From contig OY970296.1 in NCBI GenBank assembly GCA_963716175.1, forward strand, positions 3,200,001 to 3,264,000: 64,000 bases of DNA. The letters are read 5' to 3'. How positions within the stretch are numbered: position 1 is the stretch's first letter; each line of letters opens with the position of its first letter. Both the position numbers and the translations under genes were made by a program. The notes below the pieces were generated by a model. It had not been told where the DNA came from, did no database searches, and saw only the letters and a list, made by a program, of their open reading frames with translations. The DNA is from an uncultured Armatimonadetes bacterium (lineage in GTDB: Bacteria > Armatimonadota > Hebobacteria > Hebobacterales > Hebobacteraceae). This document shows positions 6,969 through 28,090 of the stretch, in pieces.

Positions 6969-6994
6969 GTAGGGCGGGCATGCCTATGCCCGCC
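6969..6994 (+). repeat. GTAG-type REP palindrome
   Basis: GTAGGGCGGGCATGCCTATGCCCGCC; related copies at 25423, 39244, 61014, 63381. Confidence 0.7.
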
Positions 6995-11844: not shown

Positions 11845-14157
11845 ATGCAGGCCACGGTGCCGACAACTGAAGAGCAGCGGGTTCAGGCCCAGGCGCTGCC
11901 AGCGGATGTCGCGGCTTGGCTGAAAGAGCAACTGCCAGACGAGCAGGTGCGCTTGAGCCAGTACGCGGACCTGCACGGGCCCGGCCACTTTGGCGTCGCC
12001 TGGGTGGCGGCCACTGACAGCTCCCTGGTGGGAATGCGGGAGGATGCGGATGGCCTGAAGCTGCAGGCGCGGGTGCCCCTGGAGCAGATCGAAGCCCTGG
12101 AGCTGCGGGAGTTTGTGGGCAACGGCCGGCTGGAGGCGGTGACCGCCGAGGGCAAGGTCGCCATGGTGCGGTTCACCCGCTCCCTGGCGCGGCCCATGGA
12201 GCAGGTCAGCCGCGAGTTCGCGCGGCTCGCCACTGAGCGCCGGGCCACCGTGGGCAAGCCGGCGGTGGCGCTGACCGGTGATGTGGGCGAGCGGACCGCG
12301 GCGCGGTGTGCCATCTGCGGGCGCGTGCTCAGCCAGGAGGGGGTCTGTTCCCAGTGCTTGGACCGGCAGCAGCTGGCCTGGCGCATGCTGAACTTCATCC
12401 GGCCCTACAGCTTTCAGGCGATCATGGGCCTGGTGCTGGCCGGGGCCGCCACCTTCGTCTCCTTGCTGCCTCCCTGGTTCACGAAGACCCTGATAGATGA
12501 TGTCCTGATCAAGGGCCAGGGCCAACTGCTGGGCCCCATCACGGCCTGGCTGGCGGTCATTTATATCTTCCGCTCGGCGCTGAGCTATGCCCGCTCCTAT
12601 CTGCTGGCCTGGCTGGGCCAGCGAGTGGTGGCCGATGTGCGGTCCCGCACTTACCGCCACCTGCAGCAGCTCTCGGTTGGCTTCTACGAGCGCCGCCAGA
12701 CCGGTCAGCTGATGTCTCGCTTGACCCACGACACCGGCCACATCCAGGATTTCGTGGCCGACTACATGCAAGAGATCGTGGTGCAGTCATTCACCGTCAT
12801 CATCATCATGGCCATCCTGCTGTGGCAGTCGCCCATGCTCACCCTGTTCGCGCTCCTCCCGGTGCCTCTGATCGTGCTCACCACCACCATGATCCGGCAG
12901 CGCGTCCGCCGCTACTACCGGAGCGTGCGCCGGCGCATGGGCGGAATGCAGGCCGTGCTCGCCGACGCCATCCCGGGGGTGCGGGTGGTGAAGGCCTTCG
13001 CCCAGGAAGATCGGGAGAGCGAGCGGTTCGACGTCCGCAACGAGGGCTACACCCAGACCAGCATCAGCGCCGCCCGGCTGCGCAGCGGGTTCATGGCGAT
13101 CGTGGCCCTGATCACCTCCCTGGGCTCTCTCCTGGTGTGGTACTTCGGCGGGACGATGAGCCTTCAGGGGACGCTCACGGTCGGCACCATCGTGCTCTTC
13201 ACCAGCTATATCTGGCAGCTCTACGGGCCCATCGGGCAGATCAGCAACATGTACGAGCGCTTCCAGTTCGCCGCCACCGCGGCCGAGCGCGTGTTCGAGG
13301 TGCTCGACACCCAGTCCGAGCTAGAGCAGACCGGCCAGCGCCGCTCCGCCTCCGGGCTGGAAGGAGCGATCCGGTTCGACCGCGTTTCCTTTAGCTATGA
13401 GGACGGCGCCCCGGTATTGTCCGACATCTGCCTGGACGTGGCGCCGGGAGAGATGATCGGGCTGGTGGGCCGGACCGGCGTGGGCAAGACCACCATCATC
13501 AACCTGCTCTGCCGGTTCTATGATCCCGACCGGGGCGTGATCTATGTGGACGGCCAGGATCTGCGCGATTACGACCTCCGCTCCTGGCGCAGCCAGATCG
13601 GGATGGTGCTGCAAGAGCCCTTCCTCTTCCACGGCAGCATCGCCGACAACATCGCCTATGGGCGGTCGGATGCCAGCGAGCGGGAGATCATCGCTGCCGC
13701 CAGGGCGGCGAACGCACACGAGTTCATCATGGGGCTGGCCGACGCCTATGACACCCAGGTCGGGGAGCGGGGAGTGCGCCTCTCCGGGGGAGAGCGCCAG
13801 CGGATTTCCATTGCCCGCGCCATCCTGCACAACCCGCGGCTCTTGATCTTCGACGAGGCCACCTCCTCGGTTGACACCGAGACCGAGATGCTGATCCAGA
13901 CCGCGATCCAGCGCCTGGTGGCAGACCGGACCACCTTCGCCATCGCCCATCGGCTGTCCACGCTGCGGCATGCCCACCGCATTGTGGTGTTGGAGGAAGG
14001 CCGGGTGGCCGAGGTGGGCACGCACGATCAGCTGATGGCGCAGTCGGGGACCTATGCCCGGCTGGTGGAGGCCCAGAGCCGGATGGCCGCCCACGGCGTG
14101 CCGGTGGAGAACGAGGATCACGAGGCCGAGACGGACAACGGCGAGTACGGTGTGTGA
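11845..14157 (+). CDS. ABC exporter (TMD+NBD) with N-terminal extension and Zn-ribbon
   Basis: [25 protein letters not shown]; CAICG..CSQC before TMD. Confidence 0.92.
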
Positions 14158-14684
14158 TGGCACCGGACACTGAATTCGAGTTCGGCCGTACGGTGCGTGA
14201 GGTGCCAGTGCTGGACCCCGGCAGCGTGAAAGCGCGGCTGGACCAGCAGGGCCGGGTGCGGCTGACCTTGCGGGAGGCCGAAGAGCATGTCAACGTGCGC
14301 GTGGTGCCGGCCTTCCCCATCACCCGGCCCGATCATTTCATCTACTTCCAGGACGAATCCGGCAAGGAGCTGGGCCTGCTGGTGGAGCCGCGCCGCCTGG
14401 ACCGGGAGTCGCGGGATCTGATTCTGGCGCAAGCGGACCAGGCCTACTTCATGCCCCGCATCACCCGCATCATCCGGGTGGACGAGCAGGCAGGCGTGGC
14501 GACCTGGGAAGTGGAGACCGACCGCGGCTGGAGCCGGTTCGAGACGGTGCCCCGGGGCGAGTCCACCTGGTTTGTGGGCCGCGACCGGGTGCTGATCCGG
14601 GACGTGGACGGCAACCGCTATCTGATCGAGGAGCTGGGTAAGCTCGATCTGCGCAGCCGCCGCTGGGCCGAGCTCTACCTCTAA
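14157..14684 (+). CDS. DUF1854-like protein
   Basis: AFPITRP..YFMPRITRI..WEVETDRG..DVDGNRY; coupled to ABC exporter. Confidence 0.8.
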   Translation: MAPDTEFEFGRTVREVPVLDPGSVKARLDQQGRVRLTLREAEEHVNVRVVPAFPITRPDHFIYFQDESGKELGLLVEPRRLDRESRDLILAQADQAYFMPRITRIIRVDEQAGVATWEVETDRGWSRFETVPRGESTWFVGRDRVLIRDVDGNRYLIEELGKLDLRSRRWAELYL

Positions 14685-14777
14685 TGGCGTTCGCACAAAG
14701 AAGTAATGTGCGAACGCCGCTCTGGGCCCGTCTGAGCAGTTGCCTGAGCTTCGCCCGCTTGCTTCTTTGAGCGAAGC

Positions 14778-15662
14778 TCAGTAGCTGCGTCTGCGCAGCA
14801 GACTCTCCAGCACCGGCTTGATCTTCCCCCACTCGCTGGACCGCGCATAGCTGACCGGCACTCCGTCATCCGTTAGCCGCAGCCGACCGGACGCATCCAT
14901 GGCCACCCGCAGCTCATCGAAGAGGAACGCCTCCGGCGCCACCAGCGACAGCAGCGTGATGGCATCGAACAGCGTGAGCGGAGCCTCCTCCCGCACCGTC
15001 CCTCCCCGGTTGCGGTATTCCCGGTAGCAGTCGAGCAAAAAGGCCGAGGCTGGGTCCGCCGGGTTCAGCAATGCTTCCACCTCCGGCCTGGTCAGGATGT
15101 CGCTGCACGCCTCCAGCCCCACCAGCTTCGGGTTAGTCCTCTGGAAAACCAGCTTCGCCCCTACCGGGTCGCACCAGATATTGTACTCCGGCGCATTGCG
15201 CTCCGGATCCCCTTCCAGGCGGCCGGCCATGCACGTCACCGATCGCCAGCAGCTCGCGATCCCCGGATCGCTGGCAAGCATGCGGCCGATGTTGGTCAGG
15301 GGCCCGATGGTGATCAGATCGAACTCCTCCGCCACCCTCATCGCGGCGGCGATCGAGCTGGCGCGAAGCTCATCGTGCTCTGCTGAGAGGCGAGCCAGAT
15401 GGACCGGCGCCAGCGTCTCATAGGAGGGCAGCTCCTCGGGAGGAGCCTGGCCGCCCAGGGGGGTGATCGCCCCCGCGAGCACCGGCAGATCCAGCCCCGC
15501 TCGGCTCAGCAGCTCCTGCGCCAGCCACTGCCGCGCCTCTACCCGGCCATAGACCGTGGAGACTCCTACCACCTCGATCTCGGGGTGCCGGGCCGCGCAC
15601 AGCAGCGCCACCGCGTCATCTATGTCTGAGCCGATGTCAGTGTCAATCCACACCTTGCGCAT
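14778..15662 (-). CDS. Nucleoside hydrolase (IU-NH family)
   Basis: IDTDIGSDIDD, IGPLTN, EYNIWCDP. Confidence 0.9.
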   Translation of the reverse strand: MRKVWIDTDIGSDIDDAVALLCAARHPEIEVVGVSTVYGRVEARQWLAQELLSRAGLDLPVLAGAITPLGGQAPPEELPSYETLAPVHLARLSAEHDELRASSIAAAMRVAEEFDLITIGPLTNIGRMLASDPGIASCWRSVTCMAGRLEGDPERNAPEYNIWCDPVGAKLVFQRTNPKLVGLEACSDILTRPEVEALLNPADPASAFLLDCYREYRNRGGTVREEAPLTLFDAITLLSLVAPEAFLFDELRVAMDASGRLRLTDDGVPVSYARSSEWGKIKPVLESLLRRRSY

Positions 15663-15863
15663 CTCGCTTACCCTTTCTTGCCCGCCTCCGGCGGGCCCGG
15701 CGGTTCGTCTGCTCTTGCTGCAGGCCGCGCCAGAACGCAACAGGCCCCGGTTGTGTCCCCTCCTGCCGGCGCCAACCTGGGCCTATCGCGAGGTTCGCTC
15801 CTTCCGCTAGGATTCCTCGGCCGGCGAGAGGACCGGCAGCCAGCAAGGGCTAAAACTCCGCAC

Positions 15864-16925
15864 ATGGGACGATCACCAGCACCAAGCATCATCATCACCG
15901 GGGGCGCGGGCTTCCTGGGCTGCCATCTTGCCGCCGGTCTGGCCGGGCGCGCCGGGAGGCTGACCCTGATAGACGTGGCCCCCTTTGTCGCCGACGAATA
16001 CCCGCCCGGGGCCGAGCTGGTGCAGGCCGACGTGCGCGACGCGGCCGCCCTGGGCCAGGTCGTGGCCGCACATCCCTGCGATGTCGTCATACACGCCGCC
16101 GCCGCGCTGCCTCTGTGGACGCGCGAGGACATCTTCGGGGTGAATGTGGAGGGCACGCGGAATGTGCTCGCGGCGGCCCTCGCCTATGGGGTGAAGCGCG
16201 TGGTTTTCATCTCCTCTACTGCGGTCTACGGTGTCCCCAAGAAGCACCCGATTGAGGAGGACGATCCCCTGATCGGCGTCGGGCCCTATGGGGAGAGCAA
16301 GATCCAGGCGGAGCGGCTTTGCGAGGAGTATCGCATCAAGGGCTTGTGCGTGCCGATCATCCGCCCAAAGACCTTCATCGGCACCGGGCGGCTGGGGGTG
16401 TTCGCCATCCTCTACGACTGGGTGAAGAGCGGCGTCCGCATCCCGGTCATTGGTTCGGGGAAGAACCGTTATCAACTGCTGGAGGTGGAGGACCTGGTAG
16501 AGGCGATCTGGCTCGCCTGCGCCGCGCCCGCGGAGAAAGCGAACGTCGCCTTCAACGTCGGGGCGAAGCGGTTCGGCACCGTCCAGGAGGACGTGGGCGC
16601 GCTCTGCCAGTACGCGGGCAGCGGCGCGCGGGTGATGGCGACCCCGGCCTGGCTGGTGAAAGCGCTGCTGCGGTTCTTCGAGTTGGTCAAGCTGTCGCCG
16701 CTCTACAAGTGGGTCTATGGCACCGCCGACAAGGACTCGTTTGTCTCCAGCGAGCGCATCGAGCGGGCGCTGGGCTGGTCGCCGCGTTACAGCAATGCAG
16801 AAGCCCTGATCCGGTCCTATCAGTGGTACCTAGACCACTACACCGAGGTGGAGCAGGCCGTCGGCATCACCCACCGGGTGGCCTGGAAGCAGGGCGTGCT
16901 CAAGCTGTTGAAACGCCTGCTCTGA
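15864..16925 (+). CDS. NAD-dependent epimerase/dehydratase; last codons supplied by the integrated element
   Basis: ITGGAGFLG, YGESK (YxxxK); attL at 16908-16909. Confidence 0.92.
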   Translation: MGRSPAPSIIITGGAGFLGCHLAAGLAGRAGRLTLIDVAPFVADEYPPGAELVQADVRDAAALGQVVAAHPCDVVIHAAAALPLWTREDIFGVNVEGTRNVLAAALAYGVKRVVFISSTAVYGVPKKHPIEEDDPLIGVGPYGESKIQAERLCEEYRIKGLCVPIIRPKTFIGTGRLGVFAILYDWVKSGVRIPVIGSGKNRYQLLEVEDLVEAIWLACAAPAEKANVAFNVGAKRFGTVQEDVGALCQYAGSGARVMATPAWLVKALLRFFELVKLSPLYKWVYGTADKDSFVSSERIERALGWSPRYSNAEALIRSYQWYLDHYTEVEQAVGITHRVAWKQGVLKLLKRLL

Positions 16926-16932
16926 TTGGCAG
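16889..16932. other. attL (host arm + TT core 16908-16909 + element arm)
   Basis: gcagggcgtgctcaagctg-TT-gaaacgcctgctctgattggcag. Confidence 0.8.
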
Positions 16933-18462
16933 GGCGTTTTTGCCCCTCAGGTCCTTTCCAGCCCATGCTATCTCGATCTCATACTTCCGGTCCTTCGACG
17001 GGGCGCGCCAGTTGTCGCAGGCCACCGTCACCTTGAAATCAAGCTCTTGGAGAAGCCACCTCTTCTCTGGTAGTGTCATCGTGTCGAGTCGCCCGGCCAG
17101 GCCAGTGACTCTCTCGGCGACGGCGGCGGCGACCCGCTCCCGCAGCTCCGCGTCCTCGATCAAGGGCTCGATCTCTGCCAGGCGTGCCGCCCACTCCTCC
17201 TTGTCCTCCTCGATGTCCTTGCGGTGCGCAGCCAGCTCCGCAGCCGTGATCTCCTCGCCAGCACGCATCCGAATGTAGCGGTCAAGCTTCGCGTCCAGTT
17301 CCTTGAGCCTCCGCCTCAGCCGCTCGCGCTCCTCGCGGTACTCCGGCACCTTCCGGTCCTGCGTCCGCGCCATGTAGACCGCGGCCATCCTCGGGTCCGC
17401 CACCAGCTCCTCGATCAGGCCCCACACCTTCGCGTCGATGGGCGCCGCCGGCACGTAGCGCTCACGACAGGGCCTGCCCACGTTCGCCTTCCTCTGACAG
17501 CAGGAGTAGTAGCCCAACAGGGGCGCCTCCTGCACCATGCGGCCGAACATCTTCGACCCGCACTCCGCGCAGTGAATCACGCCGCCCAGCAGGAAGTTGT
17601 GCAGGAGCTTGCGCCGCGATCTGTGCTTGTGATAGCGGAGAGCCTTCTGCGCTTTCGCCCAGGTGGCCTCGCTCACCGCCGCCCCTGGTGTCAGGTCGGC
17701 CCGGGCGAAGCAGGCCTCCTCAACCTCCGGCGCCGATATGCGCCACTCGCCCTTGTACCGCGGATCCCTCAGCAGTTCTCGCACCACTGAGGGCCTCCAC
17801 GGCCGATGCGTCCTGGCGAACAGCCGGCGCCCGTTCAGCTCGTCACTGATCTCGCGCGTACCCTTGCCCCGGCAGGACAGGTCGAAGATCAGCCGCACCG
17901 TCGCCAGCTCCTCTTCGCAGGCCGCCGGGCGGCCGCACACCCCCCGCCGCTCGCCCCGCTGCCAGCGATACCCGAACGGTTCCTGCCACACCGAGAACTC
18001 GCCCCGTGCCGCCCTGCCCTGCTTGCCGGTCTTGGTGCGCCGGTAGATGTCGTCGGCCTCCCGCTGCGCCTTCCATGAGCCGATCATGGACACCAGCACG
18101 TCAATGTCGTCGCCGAAGTCCACGTCGCCCCGCGGGGTATGCACCCGAACCCCGGCCGCCTTCAGCCGCGCCGCGATCATCGGCCATACAAGCTGATTCC
18201 TGGCGAGCCGGTCCTGGTCATAGACGACGAGGTGCTTGAACCGTCCGGCCTCCGCGTCGTCCAGCAGTCGGCGCAGCGCCGGCCTGTTGCTGAGGTCATC
18301 CTTGCGCGCGGACTTACCGGCGTCCTCGTAGACCTCACTTAGCGGCCAGCCTGCCCGCTTGCAGACCTCGCGCCCCTGCCGGTCTTGCTCCGGCAAGCTC
18401 ACCGCGTCGAGCGTCGCCTGGCCTTGTGAGCTTACTCTGGTGTAAATCGCTGCCTTCGTCAT
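16900..18462 (-). CDS. Large serine recombinase (integrase)
   Basis: AIYTRVSS catalytic Ser, RPALRRLL, DRLAR, PFGY, Zn ribbon CAECG..C, coiled coil. Confidence 0.95.
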   Translation of the reverse strand: MTKAAIYTRVSSQGQATLDAVSLPEQDRQGREVCKRAGWPLSEVYEDAGKSARKDDLSNRPALRRLLDDAEAGRFKHLVVYDQDRLARNQLVWPMIAARLKAAGVRVHTPRGDVDFGDDIDVLVSMIGSWKAQREADDIYRRTKTGKQGRAARGEFSVWQEPFGYRWQRGERRGVCGRPAACEEELATVRLIFDLSCRGKGTREISDELNGRRLFARTHRPWRPSVVRELLRDPRYKGEWRISAPEVEEACFARADLTPGAAVSEATWAKAQKALRYHKHRSRRKLLHNFLLGGVIHCAECGSKMFGRMVQEAPLLGYYSCCQRKANVGRPCRERYVPAAPIDAKVWGLIEELVADPRMAAVYMARTQDRKVPEYREERERLRRRLKELDAKLDRYIRMRAGEEITAAELAAHRKDIEEDKEEWAARLAEIEPLIEDAELRERVAAAVAERVTGLAGRLDTMTLPEKRWLLQELDFKVTVACDNWRAPSKDRKYEIEIAWAGKDLRGKNALPIRAGVSTA

Positions 18463-18713
18463 CTATGCCCCTCCTGTCTGGGCCGGCGGCCAGCCGGTGA
18501 GGGGGTGTGCCGGCCAGCCGCGCGGCCCGATGTGATCGCGGTTCACCGGGCAGGGCGGCCTCCCGAGAGTGAGGGTCAAAGGGCCCCTCGGAAAGCGCAA
18601 GCCCCGCCCGGCAGACACCGCGTCAGGTGGTAAGGCCAGACGTAGTGCAACACGGACGGGGCGAATAGGTTCTCTACCAGAGTATGGTGTCTGCACCGTC
18701 TGACCTTACCGCC
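18463..18713 (-). ncRNA. Structured 5' leader RNA of the integrase gene (c4/CI-like antisense architecture, putative)
   Basis: ~27-bp imperfect stem 18626-18653/18687-18713; two 9-10 nt segments complementary to contiguous target 18601-18619; further stems with G-U pairs on the minus strand. Confidence 0.55.
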
Positions 18714-18716
18714 CCG

Positions 18717-18745
18717 ATTCTAAGCCACCAGGCCCGATCTGTCAA
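18717..18745 (-). promoter_or_regulatory. Sigma70-type promoter upstream of integrase leader
   Basis: TTGACA-N17-TAGAAT. Confidence 0.8.
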
Positions 18746-19192
18746 GCACGAAAACCGCCCAATCCACCTGCACCTCCACCCCATGCCCAGCACGAACCGC
18801 CCCGCACATCGCCACCTGCGAGGCCATTTCCGGCCGAACGTCCAGAATCGCCCAGGAATCGGCTTTGCCGGGGCCGCACCCACCACCCATGCCAGGCGCT
18901 AATCGCCTGCCCTGCCGCCACCAGTGCAGCCAGGGCAGGCCTTGTGGCGGCCTCGCGCCTCCAAGCAGGGAGGGCCGCCGCCTCCAGACAGACGGCGGCC
19001 CTCAACCCGGCGGCGCCGCCCCCGACGTCGGGGAAAAGTCGAGCCCGCTCCCGCGATCCCACGGGAGAAGGGCGGCGCCACTGATGCCGCCTCGGCGGAT
19101 CAGACCGCGGCTGCCAAAGTCAAGTCAGGTGGGGCCGGCCTGCCACCGGCGCGACCGGCCCCCGGCCTCTGGCTCGCAGGCGCGGCCGAGGC

Positions 19193-20449
19193 CTACACCA
19201 GACACACGAACGGCGAAACCTGGGTCAGACCGTCGGCAAGCGTGATAGGCGCGCGAAGCCACGGCTGCCCATCGGTGCAGGCGAACGCCTTCAACACGCT
19301 GCGGTTCTGAATGAAGTTCGTGCCGTGCGCGTTGGTCATGTCCACGGTCAGGTTCGTGCCGTCTTTGCAGATGTAGTACGACCAGTCCACCAGCAGCACG
19401 TCGCCCGCGGTCCCGAGCACCGGCGCGGCGTCCCATATGTCCACGGGAAAACCGAGCACCGAGCCCCAGGCGTTGGCCGAGGGCTGCCATAGAGGAGTCA
19501 GCCCGCCCGGCAGAGTCGCCATCGCGATCTGCGCGATCACGGTCTGACTGATGATCCACCGCTTCTGCCTACCGCGCGAAGCAGCGACCATGTTCACGAA
19601 GTCGGCGTAGGCCACCGCGCCCGGGCCGGCCCGCGTGACGTTGATCGTCGCCGGATGGCCGATCACGCCCAGCGGTTTCGCCACGCCATCGCCGGCCAAG
19701 TAGGCGTCATCCATCGTCGCCGCGATGGCCTGCGCGAACAACCCGCCCAGGAGCGCGGACACGCCGGGCACGTTCCGGATCAGCTTGTCCGTCAGTTCGG
19801 TGTACCCGGCCAGTTCGTTGGGCTTCAGGGTCAGCTCGCCGAAGGTGGGCTGAGACTCGGGCTTCGCCGCGCCCTCCCCGATCCACGAAACGGTCACGCC
19901 GCCGAACCGCCCGGCCGTGTAGTCGAGCAGCGGCATTTCGATTGCCGCGTCCGGCTGCTGGTCCGACCGGGGCGCATACCGCGCATAGGGCCGGACAAGT
20001 GACTGGTAGGTGATCGCCTCCACCAGCGCGTCGCTCCACTGAGTCGGAACCAAGAAGCCGCCGCTCGCGCCTGTTTGCACTTCCAGCGCGCGGGTGTTCA
20101 GCGCCTGAAGTCGGGAGTCACCGGGGTTCGCGTTCAGCGTCCGGATGAAATCGCCGAAGCTGTCGAAGCCACCGGCCGCCGAGTCCAGCGCCCGCAGCTC
20201 GGAGTCCGGCCGCCGCTCGGCGACGCCGCCGAGGTTGATCGCGGCCCGCTGCGCCGACAGGGAAGCCTGGTCGCGCTGCCCTTCGAGCGCCGTGATGCGA
20301 TCCACCACGGAGGTGCGAATCCGGGCGATCTCGTCCCGGAACTGCCGCACCACATCCTCGTCGCCGCCGGGCAGTGCCAGTCGCGCCCCGCAATCGCAAA
20401 AGAGTCGCGTACCGTCATACTGCTTGCCGCACTTCGGACAGACCTGCAT
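19193..20449 (-). CDS. HK97-fold phage major capsid protein with N-terminal zinc ribbon
   Basis: GGFLVP, WIGEG..KP, G.G..KPLGV, LGFPV, DVLLVDWS; N-terminal CPKCG..FCDCG then coiled coil. Confidence 0.9.
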   Translation of the reverse strand: MQVCPKCGKQYDGTRLFCDCGARLALPGGDEDVVRQFRDEIARIRTSVVDRITALEGQRDQASLSAQRAAINLGGVAERRPDSELRALDSAAGGFDSFGDFIRTLNANPGDSRLQALNTRALEVQTGASGGFLVPTQWSDALVEAITYQSLVRPYARYAPRSDQQPDAAIEMPLLDYTAGRFGGVTVSWIGEGAAKPESQPTFGELTLKPNELAGYTELTDKLIRNVPGVSALLGGLFAQAIAATMDDAYLAGDGVAKPLGVIGHPATINVTRAGPGAVAYADFVNMVAASRGRQKRWIISQTVIAQIAMATLPGGLTPLWQPSANAWGSVLGFPVDIWDAAPVLGTAGDVLLVDWSYYICKDGTNLTVDMTNAHGTNFIQNRSVLKAFACTDGQPWLRAPITLADGLTQVSPFVCLV

Positions 20450-20709
20450 GGTCTGCTCACTTTCCGACCTGCCCGGCCACCGCGGCCGGGTCAGGTCTCA
20501 CGCTTAGTGTGCATCCGCCGAGAGGTGGCTATGCCGGCCTCCCTGCGCTCGACTGCCGGCCCGGAAACAAGCGTGGTGGCCGCCGTCGCGAACGGCGAAT
20601 CCGTCGCCTGCCCCCGGGTGGCTCTGCCGGCCCGGTTGGGAGGTGGTGTCCTGCCGCGGCCGCGACAGTCCCGGCCTCCGTCCCCGGGTGGCGTATGCAC
20701 CAACGCCCC

Positions 20710-21345
20710 TCATCGCTGATACCGTTCATAGGGGTCCCACTCTTCGACGCTGCCATAGGTCTTCGAGCCCGGCGGCATGACGGGAGGATCCCCGGGCCGC
20801 CGCAGCACGATCACCTCAACCTCTTCCGCCGCCGGCGCCTCCTCAGAGACCGCCACCACCGCGTCAACCGCCGCCGTCATGCCCGCAGGCTGCGCACCCC
20901 GCCCCGGTGCCCGCGCCCTGGCGATGGCCTCGGCTTCCCCCTCATCGGGCTCGGCCCGGGCCACCACGATGGGCGGTGCCGGTTTCGGACGCAACTGCTT
21001 GGCCGCCGACGCCAGCGCCGACCAAGCATCGCTCCGCGGAAAGTGCCGCAGAAGCCCCTGCACGGCGACTTTCCAGCCAGAGGCGTCCTGGCAGAGGATG
21101 GCCCTCAAGGTCCTCACCACGTCGTCACGCAGAGGCTCCAGCGCACCTTCTGCCGGCAAGGCCGCGACCGCCGCCAGTAACGGCTCCGGCCAGTTCTCTG
21201 TAGTGGTGTCCGCCAGTGCCGACTTGGCTCTTTCGTAGCCGAGAAAGTCGAACACCAGGTCCGCTCCGTCTAAGAGTGACGGCAGCGCCCACCGCCGCAC
21301 CAGCCGCCCCGCCCTTTCCAGTAGGCTCAGCATAGCCTTACTCAT
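20710..21345 (-). CDS. Hypothetical element protein (helical N-terminus, Pro/Ala/Glu-rich tail)
   Basis: Start overlaps upstream stop; co-oriented in operon. Confidence 0.65.
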   Translation of the reverse strand: MSKAMLSLLERAGRLVRRWALPSLLDGADLVFDFLGYERAKSALADTTTENWPEPLLAAVAALPAEGALEPLRDDVVRTLRAILCQDASGWKVAVQGLLRHFPRSDAWSALASAAKQLRPKPAPPIVVARAEPDEGEAEAIARARAPGRGAQPAGMTAAVDAVVAVSEEAPAAEEVEVIVLRRPGDPPVMPPGSKTYGSVEEWDPYERYQR

Positions 21346-21775
21346 GCGCCGCCTCCAGCGCCGCCACCAGCCTTTCCAGTTCGACCAGCCGCTCCTCGAC
21401 CTCAACACCCCGCCTCACGGCCAAGGCCATCTGCGCGATGCTGGCGCAATCCCGCGCCCTGCCGGATGCCAGCTCGCCCCGAAGGACGGCCCGGGCCAGC
21501 GACTCAAAGAACCCGCGCACGGCCTCACCCGAAGAGAAGTCTATCTGCCCCACCAGCAGCTTCCGCCGTTCCGCCACCACGCGGCCCCCCTGGGCCTGAG
21601 CCTGCCGGCGCTTGTCCGCCAGCCGCTCTGAGTGCGCGAAGCACATGCCGCTGCCATCTGCCAGGGGTATGCCCCGACACCGCTTCCCTGCCCGTGTAGT
21701 GGCTGAGCAGAACTGCCCAGCCGTCTCTGACCCGATCACGCCGCGCTCATTGTCCCTGTGAGTCTCAGAGGCCAC
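21338..21775 (-). CDS. CCCH (HGGxSTG-like) Zn-binding protein, candidate terminase small subunit
   Basis: CSATTRAGKRC..MCFAH; C-terminal EERLVELE coiled coil; RBS CAGGAGG. Confidence 0.6.
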   Translation of the reverse strand: MASETHRDNERGVIGSETAGQFCSATTRAGKRCRGIPLADGSGMCFAHSERLADKRRQAQAQGGRVVAERRKLLVGQIDFSSGEAVRGFFESLARAVLRGELASGRARDCASIAQMALAVRRGVEVEERLVELERLVAALEAAHE

Positions 21776-21930
21776 TGTGGCCCTCCTGGTGCGTCCTGCG
21801 TGTTTTCACCTGACACCCATGTAAAGCGTGCTTGAACAGCCGCCCCCTACATGGGCCGCCGCCCAGCCAGGCCGCGGCCTGGCGCCACCCAAAGCAAGCA
21901 AGTACACGGTTCACTGAATCTCACTCTGCC

Positions 21931-22713
21931 TCACCACTTCACCCTGCCGCCCTTGTCCCCGAACTCTTCGGCCGCGGCTGGCGCTCCACGAGGTGGCCAG
22001 TATGGTTGCTTCTTATCGTCATCGCTCATCCGTGCGTCGCGGAAGTCCCTGCGCGGTGGCGGCCAGTTGCCCTTGATGGATGCCACCAGCACTCGGATCG
22101 GGTCATCGGCCGTCCGCTGTGGGAGCAGTTCGATCTGCGCCTCGATGACCTCGATGCCGAAGTCCTGCACCAGCTTTGCGGCCTGGCTTTTCCCCACGCC
22201 TTGACTTACCAACCGGGAAACAGCAGCAGCGCGCTCTGCTGCTCCCCCCTCTGAAATGTCTTTCTCTGAAGAGGGGGGGGTGTCGTTTTTGTTGTCACTT
22301 TGCCCGTGAGTGACAACACCCACGTTGTCACTAGTGACAACACCAGTGTTGTCAGTTGGCTGGTCCGAAGTGACAACACCCACGTTGTCAGTTGGCCGCC
22401 ATGCCGGGTTCAGATCGTGGCTCGAAGTAGCGCCTCGCCGGCGCATGATTTTGAGGTGTCCCCGCTGCTCGAGGTGGCGGATGGCCCGGGACACGATCCG
22501 CTTGCCGACCTGCACCTCCAGGCCGAGTTTCTGGGCGATCGTCCGGGTTCGAATCTTGGCGGGGATGAGGGCGCCACTCGCCTTGTCCTTCCGGCTGTGT
22601 CGGGCCAGCACGCAGAACACCCGGAGATCCCAGGCCGTCAGTAGCAGGTCGGAGATCACGCGCTCGGGCACTTGCGCAAACCTCGCTCGTGGGGTATCAT
22701 CTGGTCGCCGCAC
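21931..22713 (-). CDS. HTH replication initiator-like protein
   Basis: FAQVP..DLRVFCVL..TIAQKLG..VSRAIRHLEQRGHL winged-HTH pattern; internal iterons; GTG start with RBS. Confidence 0.7.
   Translation of the reverse strand: MRRPDDTPRARFAQVPERVISDLLLTAWDLRVFCVLARHSRKDKASGALIPAKIRTRTIAQKLGLEVQVGKRIVSRAIRHLEQRGHLKIMRRRGATSSHDLNPAWRPTDNVGVVTSDQPTDNTGVVTSDNVGVVTHGQSDNKNDTPPSSEKDISEGGAAERAAAVSRLVSQGVGKSQAAKLVQDFGIEVIEAQIELLPQRTADDPIRVLVASIKGNWPPPRRDFRDARMSDDDKKQPYWPPRGAPAAAEEFGDKGGRVKW
22311..22390. repeat. Three 20-bp palindromic iterons (putative origin)
   Basis: TGACAAC-N6-GTTGTCA at 22311, 22335, 22371; half-site at 22291. Confidence 0.8.
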
Positions 22714-22921
22714 TCTCCAGCTCCTGGGTGCGGCATGAACCGGCCTGGCAGGGCCGGTTTTCTTCTGGCCATCGCAGCGCGCCGCCCGGGCCTCGGGCTC
22801 GGCGGAGACGCCACGCGCGCACCTCGCTGAGATGCTTCCCGTGGGCAAACGGATCTACGTGGCGCATCCGGGGCGAGTGGGGCAAGACGCAGCCGGCGTG
22901 TGTATGGTAGCGGCCGGTCAT
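22697..22921 (-). CDS. Small hypothetical element protein (74 aa)
   Basis: ATGA overlap with MTase stop; MTGRYHTHAGCVLPH...; ends inside rep start region. Confidence 0.45.
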   Translation of the reverse strand: MTGRYHTHAGCVLPHSPRMRHVDPFAHGKHLSEVRAWRLRRARGPGGALRWPEENRPCQAGSCRTQELESAATR

Positions 22922-24183
22922 GGCGCCCCCTCCTGCACCGCCACCTGCCTGGCCTGCTCCGCCTCGCGGATGCGCGCCTCGGCCGTCGCCATCGCCACCG
23001 GGTCGATCTCTATCCCCACGAAGTCCCGGCCCAGCTCGACCGCGGCCACGCCGGTTGTGCCGCCGCCGAGGAAGGGATCGCACACCAGGTCCCCAGGCGA
23101 AGTCAGCCGGCCGATGTAGTACCGGGCACAGCCGATGCTCTGCTGCCAGGGGTGCGCGTCCTTCTGGACGTGCTCGCTCACATAGACGTTCTCGAACCAC
23201 GCCCGTGGCCCGGTGAAGTCGTGCCGCACGAAGAAGAGAAGCGGCTTGCTTCTCGTCCAGATACACATGGTGAAGAGGCGGCCCTCGGCGCCCGGCAGGA
23301 AGATGCTGCCCGAGCACCAGAAACGGAGCTGCTGCCGTAGGCCGTCGAACGCCGCTGGCAGGCAGATGTTCCCCGAGTATGCGATCAGCATACCGTCGGA
23401 CTTGAGGACGCGCGCCGCGAACTCGCTCAGTGCCGGCCAGAGGTGTTCGGCCTGCTTGAGATAGGGCGGATCGGTAAAGAGCAAGTCAACCGAGGCGTCG
23501 GCGATCTCCGCGCCTCGCTCGCGCATATCGCCCAGCAGTAGCGTCGCCGTGCCGATGGTGGCGTCGGCCTCGGCCGCGCCGTTCGCAGAGTAGCCGTCTC
23601 TGCGGGCCAGTTTCTCCAGGCCGCGGGCGTCGAGGACCCGATGGGGCAGATCCCCACCGAAGCTGGCCAGGGCCTTCAGCGCGCGGTCGCGCTCCAGGCG
23701 GTTCTTGGCGATCACTGCTGGCCGCGACGGACGGTACAGCTTACCGTCCCGGCCAAGCACCTCCCCAGGTGTATGATTCTGAACACCTGAAAGGTCGGCG
23801 GCCACGGTGCCCAGGCTCATGCCCACCAGCTCGGCGATGCGGCGAAGGCTCAGGCCGCGGCCGCGCAGTTCGCCGCAGAGTGCGCCCCTCTGCTCCTTGC
23901 TCAACTGGCGGCGAGCGAGGTTCAGCGTCAGCACGTGCTCAAGCTTCTGGCCTTCGGTCAGGCCAGGGCGAACGATCGTGGGGTAGTCCGTGATGCCGAG
24001 TTCGGCGCAGATGGCAAGCCGGGTGTGGCCGTCGAGTACCTGCCCTTTCTCGTCGAGTTCTATCGGGACAAGCACGCCCTCCCAGGCGATGGAAGCCTTG
24101 AGCGCGGCGCGCCGGTCGGTGGCCAAGGGTAGAAACAAATCGGCGAACCTACCGGGCCGCACTTCGGGCTTGGGCGCGCTCAT
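22918..24183 (-). CDS. ParB-like N-terminal domain + HTH + N6A/N4C DNA methyltransferase (beta class)
   Basis: VLDGHTR (ParB-like); SLRRIAELVG HTH; TDPPY precedes DPFLGGGTT. Confidence 0.88.
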   Translation of the reverse strand: MSAPKPEVRPGRFADLFLPLATDRRAALKASIAWEGVLVPIELDEKGQVLDGHTRLAICAELGITDYPTIVRPGLTEGQKLEHVLTLNLARRQLSKEQRGALCGELRGRGLSLRRIAELVGMSLGTVAADLSGVQNHTPGEVLGRDGKLYRPSRPAVIAKNRLERDRALKALASFGGDLPHRVLDARGLEKLARRDGYSANGAAEADATIGTATLLLGDMRERGAEIADASVDLLFTDPPYLKQAEHLWPALSEFAARVLKSDGMLIAYSGNICLPAAFDGLRQQLRFWCSGSIFLPGAEGRLFTMCIWTRSKPLLFFVRHDFTGPRAWFENVYVSEHVQKDAHPWQQSIGCARYYIGRLTSPGDLVCDPFLGGGTTGVAAVELGRDFVGIEIDPVAMATAEARIREAEQARQVAVQEGAP

Positions 24184-24347
24184 CGCGCCCGCCCCTCCGC
24201 CAGCGCGGCGATCGCCTGCTCACAGCGCCGCACCGCTTCTTCCGGCGTCATCCCCACGGGCAAGCGCTGGCGGAACGTGAAGGTCGGGCCCTTGCGCTCG
24301 GCCTTCTGCTTTCGTTGGTCTTCGGTTTTCGCGCCGATCATCCGCAC
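24180..24347 (-). CDS. Small basic protein (~55 aa), candidate directionality factor
   Basis: RBS GGGGAG, GTG start, stop overlaps MTase start (ATGA). Confidence 0.5.
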   Translation of the reverse strand: MRMIGAKTEDQRKQKAERKGPTFTFRQRLPVGMTPEEAVRRCEQAIAALAEGRAR

Positions 24348-24573
24348 GTGTCTCCCCAAACAGAACGCGAGCCCGCTCGGTTCTCCGAGCTGTGGGCTCG
24401 CGTCGGCCACCGCGAGGCGGTCTGGGTTATGTCAACGGGCTTGCGCCCGGTCTTCGCTGGGCAGGCCAGCCGCTAGGACAGCCGACCTGCCCATGAGACT
24501 GCACTCGTTCCAACTGCGAACTCGCCGCGCCCTGTGGGCGCACGTCAAGCCGCGCACCGCGCGGCAGGGGGTG

Positions 24574-25113
24574 TCACCCTTCAGCTAGCAACCAGCGCCA
24601 TCGCGCGCACACGGTCTCCGCGATTTTCTGATCGCCCTCGCCGAGTCTCACGCCCGCGCGCTCGGCCAGGAACTCGGGCGTCAACGCCGCCGCCACTCGC
24701 GCCTGATGTTCAAGCAGCAGACGATGACGCTCAGCCCTGCCGGCAAGCTCGGCGGCGACTTCGTCGGCATCTTCCTGCCAGGCCCACGTTACGCCGGGGT
24801 AACCCTCCGCGAGGAACTCTGCCGCGGCCCGATCCAGCCGCGCCGTCATCTGTGCCGCCATGAGCTTCATGGCCTCGGCCTCGGCGCGGTCGCGCTCCTC
24901 CTCGGCCACGAGTGCGGTGACTTCCTCGCCCAGGACGAGGCGCAGGGTGCGCGCGTACGTCATGAGGCGGCGGGTCCCGGTGTCGCGAACAAGGTCCGAC
25001 AGTATGGCAGGGTGAACCCTCGCCCGCCGCGCTGCCTCGTTCAAGCTGAATCCGGCCCGTTCTATGAGCTGGCCCAGCCGCTTACCCCGGGAAGGGGTTT
25101 CAGGTGTTCCCAT
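24574..25113 (-). CDS. XRE-like HTH regulator
   Basis: LGQLIERAGFSLNEAARRARVHPAILSDL. Confidence 0.7.
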   Translation of the reverse strand: MGTPETPSRGKRLGQLIERAGFSLNEAARRARVHPAILSDLVRDTGTRRLMTYARTLRLVLGEEVTALVAEEERDRAEAEAMKLMAAQMTARLDRAAAEFLAEGYPGVTWAWQEDADEVAAELAGRAERHRLLLEHQARVAAALTPEFLAERAGVRLGEGDQKIAETVCARWRWLLAEG

Positions 25114-25162
25114 GTTTCTCTCCGTTTCATCACAGCCGACTGTATGCCCCATAACACGGCTC

Positions 25163-25191
25163 AGTATACCACATCGGGGCTGGCCTGTCTA
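25163..25191 (-). promoter_or_regulatory. Sigma70-type promoter of the element main operon
   Basis: TAGACA-N17-TATACT ~50 nt upstream of XRE start. Confidence 0.7.
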
Positions 25192-25241
25192 TAGCGATTT
25201 TGCCCCTCCGGCCAGGTTTTTTTCGCGCCCCCGCCCGGGCC

Positions 25242-25277
25242 AAAGAGAAGGACCCCGCACCCGAGGGCGCGAGGTCC
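25242..25277 (-). terminator. Rho-independent terminator, placed to end the integrase transcript in the circular form
   Basis: GGACCTCGCGCCC-tc-GGGTGCGGGGTCC then TTCTCTTT on minus strand. Confidence 0.65.
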
Positions 25278-25385
25278 GGTCCGCCCGATCAGGTTGTCAG
25301 CCGCTCACGCCGCCCAGCGCCCGACCGCCCTCAGGCCCACAAGGTCGCACCGCTTCTCACAGAGCCGCAGGACGCTCCTGGTGGA

Positions 25386-25429
25386 CTCGCAATCTGAGCG
25401 GGGGCTTCTTCAAGCGGGTCTTGTAGGGC
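25386..25429. other. attR (element arm + TT core 25409-25410 + host arm with displaced epimerase 3' end)
   Basis: ctcgcaatctgagcgggggcttc-TT-caagcgggtcttgtag; encodes FKRVL*. Confidence 0.8.
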
Positions 25430-25452
25430 GGGCATGTCTGTGCATGCCCGCC
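25423..25452 (+). repeat. GTAG-type REP overlapping the displaced epimerase stop codon
   Basis: GTAGGGCGGGCATGTCTGTGCATGCCCGCC. Confidence 0.7.
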
Positions 25453-25544
25453 GGCCTCTCTCTCCTCCGCCTCGCCGGGGAGGTGGGCGAGCGACGACAG
25501 CGAACACAGTTGGCCGTAGTCCACTACATCGCAAGGAGACTCCA

Positions 25545-27812
25545 ATGGCCGATACTTCGCCCTCAGTCTGGCCCATCCCCCAAGAGATGAAGCTGCGCGA
25601 GGACGCGCTCGCGCTCAGCCGCGCCGTGCTCGTCGTTCCTCCGCAGGCCAGGGAGGCTGACCTGGGGCCGACGCATCTCTTCGCCGATATGGTGGCCGAT
25701 GACTTCGGCCTGGTGGTGCCAGTGGTGCGCGGCGAGGCGCCGGCCGGCAAGCTGCCCATTCGCATTCGCGTCGCCGGCCAGCGCGGCGGAGGGCGGACGC
25801 CGCGGCATCTCCCCGGCGCCGAGGGTTATCTGCTGCGCATCACCGCGGATGGCGCGGAGGCCGTAGGCCGGGACCGGCGCGGCGCGCAGTACGCAGCGGC
25901 CACCATGCTCCAGCTCGCCCAGCGGCAGGGTGGGGAAGCGGTGCTGCGCGGGGCCGAGATTCGGGATTGGCCCTACAAGCCGGTGCGCATGGTGCACCTC
26001 TATCTGCCCGGCACCGAGCATCTGGGTTACGCCCGGCGCTATCTGCGCGACTTCCTCCTGCGCTACAAGTATAACGGTCTCTTCCTGGAGCTGGGCGGGG
26101 GGGTGAGGCTGCGCAACCGGCCCGAGATCGCCCAGGGATGGCGGCGCTTCGTCGAGGAGCTGCGCGCTATCGGCGACACCGGGCCCATCTATGGCGAGCA
26201 CTGCCCGCTGGGGCCTGGTGGGCGATTTGCCGCCTCCGTGCACACCCATCTCGCGGACGGGCGCTACCTGGAGCCCGGCGACCTGCGCCTGATCAGCGAC
26301 TGGGCGCGAGCATACGACCTCGACCTGGTCCCGGAGATCCAGTCCCTTGCCCACGCCTACTACCTGGCTTGCACCTATCCCGAGATCGCGGAACTGAAAG
26401 AGGCCGATTTCCCAGATACCTACTGCCCCTGCAACCCGAAATCGTATGAGATCCTGTTCGATGTCATGGCCGCCTACATCGAGCTGACGCAGTGCCGCAG
26501 CCTGCACATCGGGCACGATGAGTGGCGCGCCGCCGGCCTCTGCCCGGAATGCCGTCAGAAGGACACCGGCGTGCTGTTCGGCGAGGACGTGGTCAAGATC
26601 GCCTCCTGGCTGGCTGAGCGAGAGATCGGCGTCTGGATGTGGGGCGACCACTTGGTGCCCAAGCACAATGCCCGCGCGCGCAGCCATCGCAGTGCCAAGG
26701 TGTGGTACGACCATCCCGACACCCAGGCTGCGGCCGAGATCGTGCGCCGCGGGGCCCCGCAGATCACCATGCTGAACTGGTCCTGGTACCTGGGCGCAGA
26801 GGACGGCGACCGCGTGCTCGCCGACCTGGGGTTCAAGCAGATCTACGGGAATTTCCATGCCCGCGGTTTCCCCGACTGGCCCGGCCGCAGCGCGCATCCC
26901 AGCGTGCTCGGGGCGGAAGTCTCCTCCTGGTGTGCCTGGGACGATTTCGAGCTGGGCATGATCCACTACCCGGACGCCGTTCACTCTGCCAACGCCATGT
27001 GGTCTCAGCATTGGCCCGCGGCCGGCGAAGTGGAGAGGATCGTGGCCCAGCAACTGCCCAAGCTGCGGGACCGGATGCGGCGCGGCTGGGAGAAGCCGCG
27101 ACTGCTGTCAGAGGCCACCCCGCGAAAGCGCAAGCAGATCATCTCCATTCGCCAGGCCTGCAACGCTCTGTCGAGAACGGAAGACTGGGACCTGAGCGGC
27201 CTTCGCTTCGGCCCCCAGGAGTCGGACGGCCTCGCCTATGAGCTGCTCGATCCGGCCGCGAATCAGGGGTGCGTGGGCGTAGTGGTGGAGCGGCTGCAGA
27301 AGCCCGAGACTCAGTATCCGCAGGCCTCAAAGGCGATTCGCATTGGCGGCAAGTACGCGAGCCTGATCTTCTGGCAGGTGGCAACCGCTGCCGGCGGGAG
27401 ACCCGCCCACGCTGGAGATGGCACCAATCACCCTCGCGAGGCAGCCGAGCTGCTGGGCTGGTATGAGATCAGATTCGCCGATGGCCTGACCCGGCAGGCC
27501 GAGGTCCGCTATCACGAGAACGTGGGCGCCTGGGATGAGGGCCACGTGTTGCTGTACTACGCCAGGGAAGTGGAGTCCGGCCGCCTGCCCGAGGGCAAGC
27601 CGCTGGTGATCTGGGGCCTGGAGTGGACGAACCCGCGGCCGGAGGTCGAGATCGAGTCAGTAACCCTGCACGGCGCCAGGACCATGCCTGAGCGTGGGGA
27701 GGGGCACTTCTCCGGGGCGCGGCCCATGCTGCTGGGGATCACCGCAATCGAGGCCCTCAAGTGGGAGGACTACCGCCCGGGGAAGGAGGGGAAGCTGCCG
27801 GGGGTGCCCTAG
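25545..27812 (+). CDS. GH20-like glycoside hydrolase
   Basis: EGYLLRI..IRDWP domain-2 motif, VPEIQSLAH, HIGHDE catalytic motif. Confidence 0.85.
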   Translation: MADTSPSVWPIPQEMKLREDALALSRAVLVVPPQAREADLGPTHLFADMVADDFGLVVPVVRGEAPAGKLPIRIRVAGQRGGGRTPRHLPGAEGYLLRITADGAEAVGRDRRGAQYAAATMLQLAQRQGGEAVLRGAEIRDWPYKPVRMVHLYLPGTEHLGYARRYLRDFLLRYKYNGLFLELGGGVRLRNRPEIAQGWRRFVEELRAIGDTGPIYGEHCPLGPGGRFAASVHTHLADGRYLEPGDLRLISDWARAYDLDLVPEIQSLAHAYYLACTYPEIAELKEADFPDTYCPCNPKSYEILFDVMAAYIELTQCRSLHIGHDEWRAAGLCPECRQKDTGVLFGEDVVKIASWLAEREIGVWMWGDHLVPKHNARARSHRSAKVWYDHPDTQAAAEIVRRGAPQITMLNWSWYLGAEDGDRVLADLGFKQIYGNFHARGFPDWPGRSAHPSVLGAEVSSWCAWDDFELGMIHYPDAVHSANAMWSQHWPAAGEVERIVAQQLPKLRDRMRRGWEKPRLLSEATPRKRKQIISIRQACNALSRTEDWDLSGLRFGPQESDGLAYELLDPAANQGCVGVVVERLQKPETQYPQASKAIRIGGKYASLIFWQVATAAGGRPAHAGDGTNHPREAAELLGWYEIRFADGLTRQAEVRYHENVGAWDEGHVLLYYAREVESGRLPEGKPLVIWGLEWTNPRPEVEIESVTLHGARTMPERGEGHFSGARPMLLGITAIEALKWEDYRPGKEGKLPGVP

Positions 27813-28090
27813 GCGGAGCCGAAGGGCCGGCCCTGACTGGCCCTGGCGATGGGAAGGCGGCTGGCGCGCGTGGTAATCGCTATTGGTGTAGAGGGGCCGG
27901 GCTGGCCGCCTCAATCCGCTTCGCTATTGACCTGGAGGGGCCAGCCCGGCTCGTCCATTTCGGATTGTTCCGGCCTCCCTCAGGCCTGCCAGGGCATGCC
28001 CATGAGCCCTGACAAGTAACCGGTACTGCTATCTTTCTCCGGCAGCGCCTGCCTTATGCCTGCTTCTGTCACGGTCTTCAGACACCGCCC

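Follow-up and report, generated by a model that had tools for sequence, protein, structure and literature searches.

How does a mobile element come to lie inside the end of a protein-coding gene and leave that gene with a reading frame of unchanged length? The question is raised by a 64,000-nt stretch of DNA, here called the window, from an uncultured bacterium of the Armatimonadota (contig OY970296.1, positions 3,200,001 to 3,264,000 of the forward strand), in which an insertion interrupts the 3' end of a gene for an NAD-dependent epimerase/dehydratase. On the comparisons described below, the inserted segment, 16910-25408, is very probably an integrated mobile element carrying its own large serine integrase, which would have recombined an attachment site on the element (attP, with arms P and P') with one in the epimerase gene (attB, with arms B and B') at a TT dinucleotide, producing the left and right junctions attL and attR. 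This 8.5-kb element is a cleanly delimited case of a well-known kind of element. What is less usual is that the target gene is conserved by non-homologous re-coding, that attP overlaps the end of the integrase gene, and that the host is an uncultured member of the Armatimonadota.

The limits of the element come from relatives in which the site is empty. Forty relatives were searched with the left and right host flanks, each flank separately, and comparison with two related genomes (G011 and G005, of a different genus and 77-78% identical in nucleotides) gives an insertion of 8,499 bp. In G005 both flanks lie on one contig, the epimerase match stopping at 1491 and the match to the downstream GH20 gene, which is syntenic with the window's right neighbour, beginning at 1610 (a gap of ~120 bp); in G011 the flanks are on the chromosome, 864 bp apart, with two small minus-strand open reading frames (ORFs) between them. 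The epimerase gene runs uninterrupted across the junction in both genomes and ends LKLFKRVL* in G011, the ending that a preliminary description of this locus had predicted for empty alleles, and LKLFKKVL* in G005. Aligned to these alleles, attL is collinear through its TT and attR is collinear from its TT onwards; attR departs from the empty alleles at the base preceding TT and attL at the base following it, which confines the common segment, and with it the crossover, to exactly these two bases. Exactly two shared bases at the crossover are a hallmark of serine integrases, and a 2-bp non-palindromic core within a pseudo-palindromic attP characterizes the large serine integrase family, according to Rutherford 2013 (PMC3783163). 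Because the empty sites come from another genus, attB of the present lineage was assembled from its own attL and attR. Joining B to B' in this way gives the same-length end ...WKQGVLKLFKRVL, as in the natural homologues P0005, P0006 and P0008, and agrees with the earlier reconstruction, whose attL (16889-16932) and attR (25390-25426) also read as described. The parts of the sites are as follows.

16888-16907, no strand: B arm of attB (host side of attL), collinear with G011 and G005 through TT
16908-16909, no strand: crossover dinucleotide TT in attL, placed by comparison with the empty sites
16910-16928, no strand: P' arm of attP, a 15/19 inverted repeat with 25390-25408; its ORFs read epimerase KRLL* on the plus strand and integrase codons 512-518 on the minus strand
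25390-25408, no strand: P arm of attP, from the inverted repeat; single match in the window at 3 or fewer mismatches
25409-25410, no strand: crossover dinucleotide TT in attR, placed by comparison with the empty sites
25411-25430, no strand: B' arm of attB, with the original last codons and the displaced TAG (25424-25426); first 9 bases identical to G011, 15/20 overall

By every sequence and fold test, the recombinase at the left end of the element is a large serine integrase.

16900-18462, minus strand: large serine integrase, 520 aa in the prophage; PF00239, PF07508, PF13408 and phrog_95
18717-18745, minus strand: promoter-like site, 11/12 to consensus, ~255 nt upstream of the integrase ATG (consensus scan)

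Its three Pfam domains all score above their curated cut-offs (Resolvase, PF00239, E 4.3e-25, residues 4-155; Recombinase, PF07508, E 2.2e-13; Zn_ribbon_recom, PF13408, E 1.1e-7), and it matches PHROG 95, 'integrase', with E 1.3e-86. The YTRVSS motif aligns to the catalytic region of the TP901-1 integrase, S11 and R9 are invariant among 6 homologues, and Cys 298, 301, 321 and 332 are likewise invariant among homologues. A structural model built on six homologues has the order expected of the family: the catalytic domain is followed by a long helix, the recombinase domain and the zinc-ribbon strands, with a two-helix hairpin (372-453) whose helices, 372-401 and 407-453, stand between those strands at a predicted local confidence (pLDDT) of 83-93. 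In Foldseek the model matches best to cryo-electron microscopy chains of full-length large serine integrases, PhiC31 and Bxb1 being named among them (E 2.6e-17 to 4e-16). Database homologues are 74 (P0122), 50, 47, 43 and 31% identical and a copy in the genome G006 is 46% identical; in DNA scans, relatives appear at 45-46% (L040 in G006, and L047) and at 24-27%. The integrase clade is rare, being present in 2 of the 401 genomes of the phylum searched (E <= 1e-60).

Compared with the reverse complement of P', the P arm matches at 15/19 positions, the count given in the preliminary description and obtained again here. Since the empty-site alleles fix the position of the junction independently, the frequency that applies is that of 15/19 at a pre-set position, 2.4e-5. 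We infer that the integrase binds these arms. Inverted ends beside a duplicated TT are formally identical to attP arms around a TT core, and the same junctions could be drawn as those of a transposon that is bounded by imperfect terminal inverted repeats of 19 bp, flanked by a TT target duplication of 2 bp and moved by a loose-target transposase (DDE or TnpX-like serine). We consider such a transposon highly improbable. No DDE transposase is encoded in the element, and Pfam and PHROG scans of 12 ORFs detected no transposase; the element, like its integrase, is present in one copy in the 4.56-Mb genome (G000); and its ends re-encode the end of the target gene, which is sensible only for a fixed target.

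This re-encoding can be read at the end of the epimerase gene itself.

15864-16925, plus strand: NAD-dependent epimerase/dehydratase, integrated allele; PF01370, E 8.6e-43; start at Met63 of the ORF 15678-16925
16916-16941, plus strand: weak terminator-like hairpin with T5 just after the new epimerase stop, in element DNA (consensus scan only)

The last five codons and the stop of the epimerase gene (16908-16925) now consist of the TT core followed by bases of the element's P' arm. The integrated allele ends WKQGVLKLLKRLL* at 16925, as the preliminary description had read it, and its length is unchanged: FKRVL* is exchanged for LKRLL*, with three residues and the stop retained. Each codon in the exchange is spelled differently (aag/aaa, cgg/cgc, gtc/ctg, ttg/ctc, tag/tga), although K, R, the final L and the stop are retained. 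The use of the same residues through different codons in B' and P' points to a constraint acting at the level of the protein.

The epimerase family itself indicates how much freedom such an end has. Among the best 120 homologues listed (up to 83% identical), P0046 and P0105 were dropped for want of the W.QG anchor, and in the remaining 118 the tail after W.QG follows the profile [IV]-L-x-[LVI]-[F85 I15 V11 L6]-K112-[R53 K37]-[L33 F30 W22...]-[L88 M30]. Position 2 is L and position 9 is L or M in all 118; position 6 is K in 112 and position 7 R or K in 90; position 5 is F in 85, I in 15, V in 11 and L in 6; position 8 is hydrophobic. The tail is exactly nine residues long in 85 of the 118, and LKLFKRVL is the commonest ending, found in 7 of the 30 closest homologues. 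The LKRLL* supplied by the element is compatible with every position of this profile. When every seventh 16-mer of both genome strands was placed after TT, 64 of 1,303,118 (4.9e-5) yielded a profile-compatible end of the right length.

One could suppose that this host-like reading is a by-product of the integrase recognizing similar half-sites in attP and attB, and owes nothing to selection on the epimerase. The B' and P' arms do share 8 of 20 bases, the highest value for the four B/P half-site pairs (the other three share 2, 2 and 5 of 20), and some half-site similarity is known in the family (PMC3783163). Eight of 20 is, however, near random expectation. The five codons and the stop all differ in bases, yet four of the six keep their meaning. 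A profile-compatible end has the low chance frequency given above (4.9e-5), and of the four positions at which P' is not perfectly symmetric with P, three hold the very bases that make Arg, Leu and the stop, although this last reading is post hoc. We therefore regard a by-product of half-site recognition as quite unlikely, and infer instead that the P' arm has been shaped by selection keeping the epimerase whole.

The version of the epimerase created by the element lies within natural variation, since the epimerase of G003 (P0025; L004, ~1460-1500) naturally ends ALLKRLL*, its last five residues being those that the element supplies. The P' arm is identical to the natural 3' end of this G003 gene at 15/18 bases; such identity would be expected from the same peptide and does not separate capture of host DNA from convergence. 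The G003 gene has a different downstream neighbour, and no remnant of an element was seen when its locus was inspected by eye. Across several phyla the family shares a C-terminal motif of nine residues, G-[IV]-L-x-[LVI]-F-K-[RK]-hydrophobic-[LM] (window 16884-16925, P0001-P0120), and its conservation suggests a functional amphipathic end. One of the homologues is named 2-alkyl-3-oxoalkanoate reductase by its source.

On the other side of the insertion, the stop codon that the element displaced coincides with a host repeat of another kind, a repetitive extragenic palindrome (REP).

25423-25453, plus strand: host REP (GTAG followed by a palindrome with a 10-bp stem) overlapping the displaced stop; many copies in G000 and in genomes of the family; contig loose ends at 25422 and 25453
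25545-27812, plus strand: host GH20 hexosaminidase-like gene, right neighbour; PF02838 and PF00728; collinear with G005 and G011 from this ATG

A 5' GTAG defines REPs, and the displaced TAG (25424-25426) is the TAG of the GTAG that heads this one, as the preliminary description had claimed for this and for other host stop codons. The REP family (GTAG and a palindrome with the stem GGCGGGCATG/CATGCCCGCC) has 134 copies in G000 and is found in other genomes of the family as well; besides 25423-25453, the window holds REPs at 6969, 39244 and 63381, and in the last two the TAG closes open frames of 516 and 299 codons. Over the whole genome, 33 of the 134 copies have their TAG as the end of a frame open for 200 or more codons, compared with 13 and 5 in the two shifted frames (3-6 times more often). 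The placing of REPs on stop codons is thus a habit of this genome. G000 also encodes five Y1-transposase-like genes (PF01797, at or over the cut-off), one of which, at 962134-962391, adjoins REPs at 961068 and 961986. Short imperfect palindromes headed by GTAG, numerous extragenic copies and a Y1-transposase-like gene with REPs at its side are the traits of REP/RAYT systems, and all of them are present in this genome. In G011 and G005 the epimerase end carries CTGTAG without a REP. The start of the GH20 gene is likely 25545 rather than 25434.

If these elements are combined, the following course of integration can be proposed. Dimers of the integrase would bind attP and attB and then bring the two sites into synapsis, as would be expected from the family. 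Both sites would be cut at TT, the subunits would rotate, and religation would give attL (16888-16928) and attR (25390-25430), the orientation being fixed because TT is not palindromic. The P' arm would then swap FKRVL* for LKRLL* and place a hairpin and a T-run after it; given the equal length, the retained residues and stop, and the hairpin with its T-run, the host epimerase should stay functional. On the opposite strand these P' bases also specify the unconserved C-terminal tail of the integrase, so that integration would shorten the enzyme from 552 to 520 aa.

This last step follows from the way in which the integrase ORF crosses its own attachment site.

25305-25408, minus strand: extension of the integrase in the excised form, 34 codons ending ...GRWAA, the 3' part being the P arm (joined by coordinates)
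25250-25277, minus strand: strong terminator-like hairpin, 12 pairs and a T-rich tail (consensus scan), 28 nt after the stop of the extended integrase in the excised form

In the prophage the integrase gene continues, in antisense, into the epimerase gene, with codons 512-518 inside P', codon 519 straddling the core and the stop, 16900-16902, in host DNA past the crossover. Bases 16908-16928 consequently serve as epimerase codons on the plus strand and integrase codons 512-519 on the minus strand, which bears out the coding part of the earlier proposal that these bases are shared. Joining the ends by their coordinates gives an ORF of 552 aa in the excised form, consisting of the 518 common residues and 34 more, with its stop at 25305-25307; integration exchanges this 34-residue tail for 2 residues. 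Because of the hairpin 28 nt past the extended stop, the integrase gene of the free form would have a proper end. Integration would be carried out by the 552-aa form, translated across attP, and not by the product of the 520-aa prophage ORF, a difference that matters for any engineering test.

It is tempting to see in this overlap of attP and integrase a switch between states, with a free 552-aa form bearing a Trp-Ala-Ala tail (possibly a protease tag) and a 520-aa prophage form without it. Tags of the ssrA type end in Ala-Ala, like the free-form integrase. If such a switch existed, the level or activity of the integrase would differ between the free and the integrated states, the system would be a serine-integrase counterpart of integration-dependent immunity, and the arm would be under three constraints at once (integrase binding, the end of a host protein and the integrase tail). 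We think the switch improbable. Conservation of the integrase ends at W500-A-G502, and the tails beyond it, of 9-30 residues, are unrelated even at 74% identity (six aligned sequences); residues 501-520 are modelled at pLDDT 42-48; and an open run of 34 codons is by our estimate about what chance would give at a G+C content of 67%. An unconserved sequence, a low pLDDT and an ORF of chance length all argue against a strong functional role for the tail.

The remaining genes raise the question of what kind of element this is, and whether it is alive.

19193-20449, minus strand: HK97-type major capsid protein; PF05065, E 2.9e-33; phrog_10; 44% homologue in G006
20710-21408, minus strand: ORF of 232 aa, function unassigned; no Pfam or PHROG match; weak collinear match in G006, E 0.004
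21338-21775, minus strand: ORF of 145 aa, function unassigned; sub-threshold DUF5763 only
21931-22848, minus strand: ORF of 305 aa, weakly HTH_36 or replication-initiator-like; PF13730, E 0.001 (below cut-off); phrog_270, E 4e-4
22918-24183, minus strand: DNA methyltransferase with a ParB-like N-terminal domain; PF01555, E 4.8e-16; phrog_67 and phrog_620
24574-25152, minus strand: ORF of 192 aa, candidate regulator; weak HTH_3, PF01381, E 0.0055 (below cut-off); promoter-like site at 25191-25163

An ORF of 76 aa is also encoded on the minus strand. All recognizable genes of the element are on this strand, and none of the nine ORFs listed requires a stop to be read through. The Cys-rich N-terminal stretch of the capsid protein resembles a zinc ribbon, as read from its CxxC...CxC pattern and assigned by no tool. 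The gap of ~730 bp between the capsid and integrase genes (18463-19192) contains no convincing ORF, has a strong AT skew and holds the near-consensus promoter (18745-18717) listed above. Rfam and tRNA scans of 16000-26500 and 14000-28000 gave no match, and no terminase, portal, protease or tail gene was found in the element by Pfam and PHROG scans. No relatives of the capsid were found in IMG/VR. Searched in the same database, the P' arm gave no match; one contig contained the exact 19-nt P arm, and we rejected it as a chance match with unrelated, low-GC flanks.

G006 carries a second element of the same architecture on two short contigs, with an integrase 46% and a capsid protein 44% identical to those described here (the capsid gene at L067, 518-1768, minus strand) and faint collinear matches upstream. 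The permease gene downstream of it aligns to relatives only within the coding region, so that its junction could not be placed, and near the ends of the integrase genes in L040 and L047 no inverted repeat was detected. Such a diverged pair looks like a small maintained type of element rather than debris, and from its gene content our guess would be a capsid-encoding phage satellite, a kind that relies on a helper phage for virion parts.

Several results weigh against the reading of this locus as a serine-integrase element with the att sites given. The empty sites come only from another genus, none from the same species or genus. The inverted repeat by itself is within reach of chance in a wide scan and would not locate the site: when 500 x 500 positions around both ends are compared, a score of 15/19 is attained by 6 of the 250,000 pairs, which fall at 3 independent places. 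The attB half-sites are barely symmetric (7/20). The A118 structure predicts an outer, zinc-ribbon motif ~5 bp nearer the core in attB than in attP, and a scan of shifts from -2 to +9, with four half-sites only, gave no peak at 4-6 above those at shifts 1, 3 and -2. No recombination directionality factor (RDF), which in this family reverses the otherwise unidirectional reaction of attP with attB, was recognized in the element. Finally, sequencing reads were searched for excised or free forms in 4 of the 7 runs listed (X1, X2, X5 and X6 were assembled; the run matches share 0.05-0.14 of sampled words). They gave contigs of 150-330 nt at low depth, some of them matching element or host-flank sequence exactly, and none spanning attL, attR, attP or an empty attB. 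In itself, this read result says nothing for or against excision.

The last two of these points, together with a length of only 8.5 kb and a capsid gene unaccompanied by any detected terminase, portal, protease or tail gene, would suit an element that is a fossil, that is, a decayed prophage remnant whose att sites are correctly mapped but which neither excises nor integrates, so that the pair is historical only. Other features speak against decay. The integrase ORF is intact and keeps all residues invariant among its five homologues, both arms are intact, the ORFs run on one strand free of read-through, and the diverged second element in G006 suggests that the type is maintained. A fossil is unlikely, though less so than the other alternatives considered here.

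The enzyme and its sites can be placed among known systems with some precision. Like the large serine integrases of phages (Bxb1, PhiC31, A118/LI, TP901-1 and SPbeta), it has the domain order resolvase, recombinase and zinc ribbon with a helical hairpin, and it belongs to the same fold family; it also shares with them a 2-bp non-palindromic core, a pseudo-palindromic attP of ~40 bp and a weakly symmetric attB in a host gene. It differs from them in sequence (15-19% identity over full-length structural alignments and 29% to the catalytic domain of TP901-1), and in that attP and the 3' end of the integrase ORF share sequence and the target gene is preserved. Several classic cases of serine integration alter or split their targets (groEL1, comK, spsM). 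Narrow phrase searches of the literature returned no account of a serine integrase gene overlapped by its attP, which is not proof of its being unpublished.

Sites that sit within ORFs are familiar from tyrosine recombinases. Mycobacteriophages such as BPs have a tyrosine integrase and an attP inside the repressor ORF, which gives integration-dependent immunity. As in the present case, integration changes the C terminus of a protein; unlike in BPs, it is a serine integrase, and not a repressor, whose gene crosses the site. The SSV-type tyrosine recombinases of archaea have attP inside the int gene, which is divided into two large parts. In the present element, too, the integrase gene is interrupted by its own integration, but only an unconserved tail of 34 residues is exchanged for 2. 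With regard to its genes, the element resembles the capsid-encoding phage satellites (capsid-forming phage-inducible chromosomal islands, cf-PICIs, and those of Streptomyces) in its small size and integrative habit, and in combining an integrase, regulators and a replication-like gene with a major capsid protein of its own but no full virion module. The cf-PICIs also carry portal, protease and packaging genes; these were not found in the present element in the Pfam and PHROG scans, and the comparison is one of genes alone.

The preliminary description had offered the integrase and its sites as a ready pair for genome engineering. The label is true but not special, because thousands of such pairs are already available from predictions that follow the same reasoning: Durrant et al. 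2022 (PMC10083194) predicted att sites for 6,207 large serine recombinases from genomes with and without the integrant. As here, attP and attB were rebuilt in that work from attL and attR against empty genomes, and TT cores occur in that set; it comes from isolate genomes, unlike the uncultured Armatimonadota lineage studied here. Nor is our knowledge of how large serine integrases work changed, and a specialist would not be surprised by a tidy, testable pair with a three-way overlap. What the locus adds is a well-delimited set of integrase, attP and attB from a rare integrase clade of the Armatimonadota. To our knowledge this is a phylum with almost no genetic tools. In addition, it suggests that an arm re-encoding the terminus of the interrupted gene can evolve even in a serine integrase element, which needs no homology to its target, the same 19 bases then carrying what would be three readings.

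Two minor observations concern the surroundings of the junctions. An 11-nt direct repeat, TTTTGCCCCTC, lies just inside both ends of the element (16938-16948 and 25198-25208). The left copy lies 10 bp past the P' arm, and the right copy adjoins the promoter-like site that belongs to the regulator gene; two 300-bp pieces would share an 11-mer by chance with a probability of ~0.02. In G011 the gap between the epimerase and GH20 genes (L003, 2510-3275) holds the two minus-strand ORFs mentioned above, of 145 and 140 aa, the first of which overlaps the epimerase stop; from their motifs we take them to resemble a HEPN/nucleotidyltransferase toxin-antitoxin pair. The intergenic spot between epimerase and GH20 seems to collect insertions.

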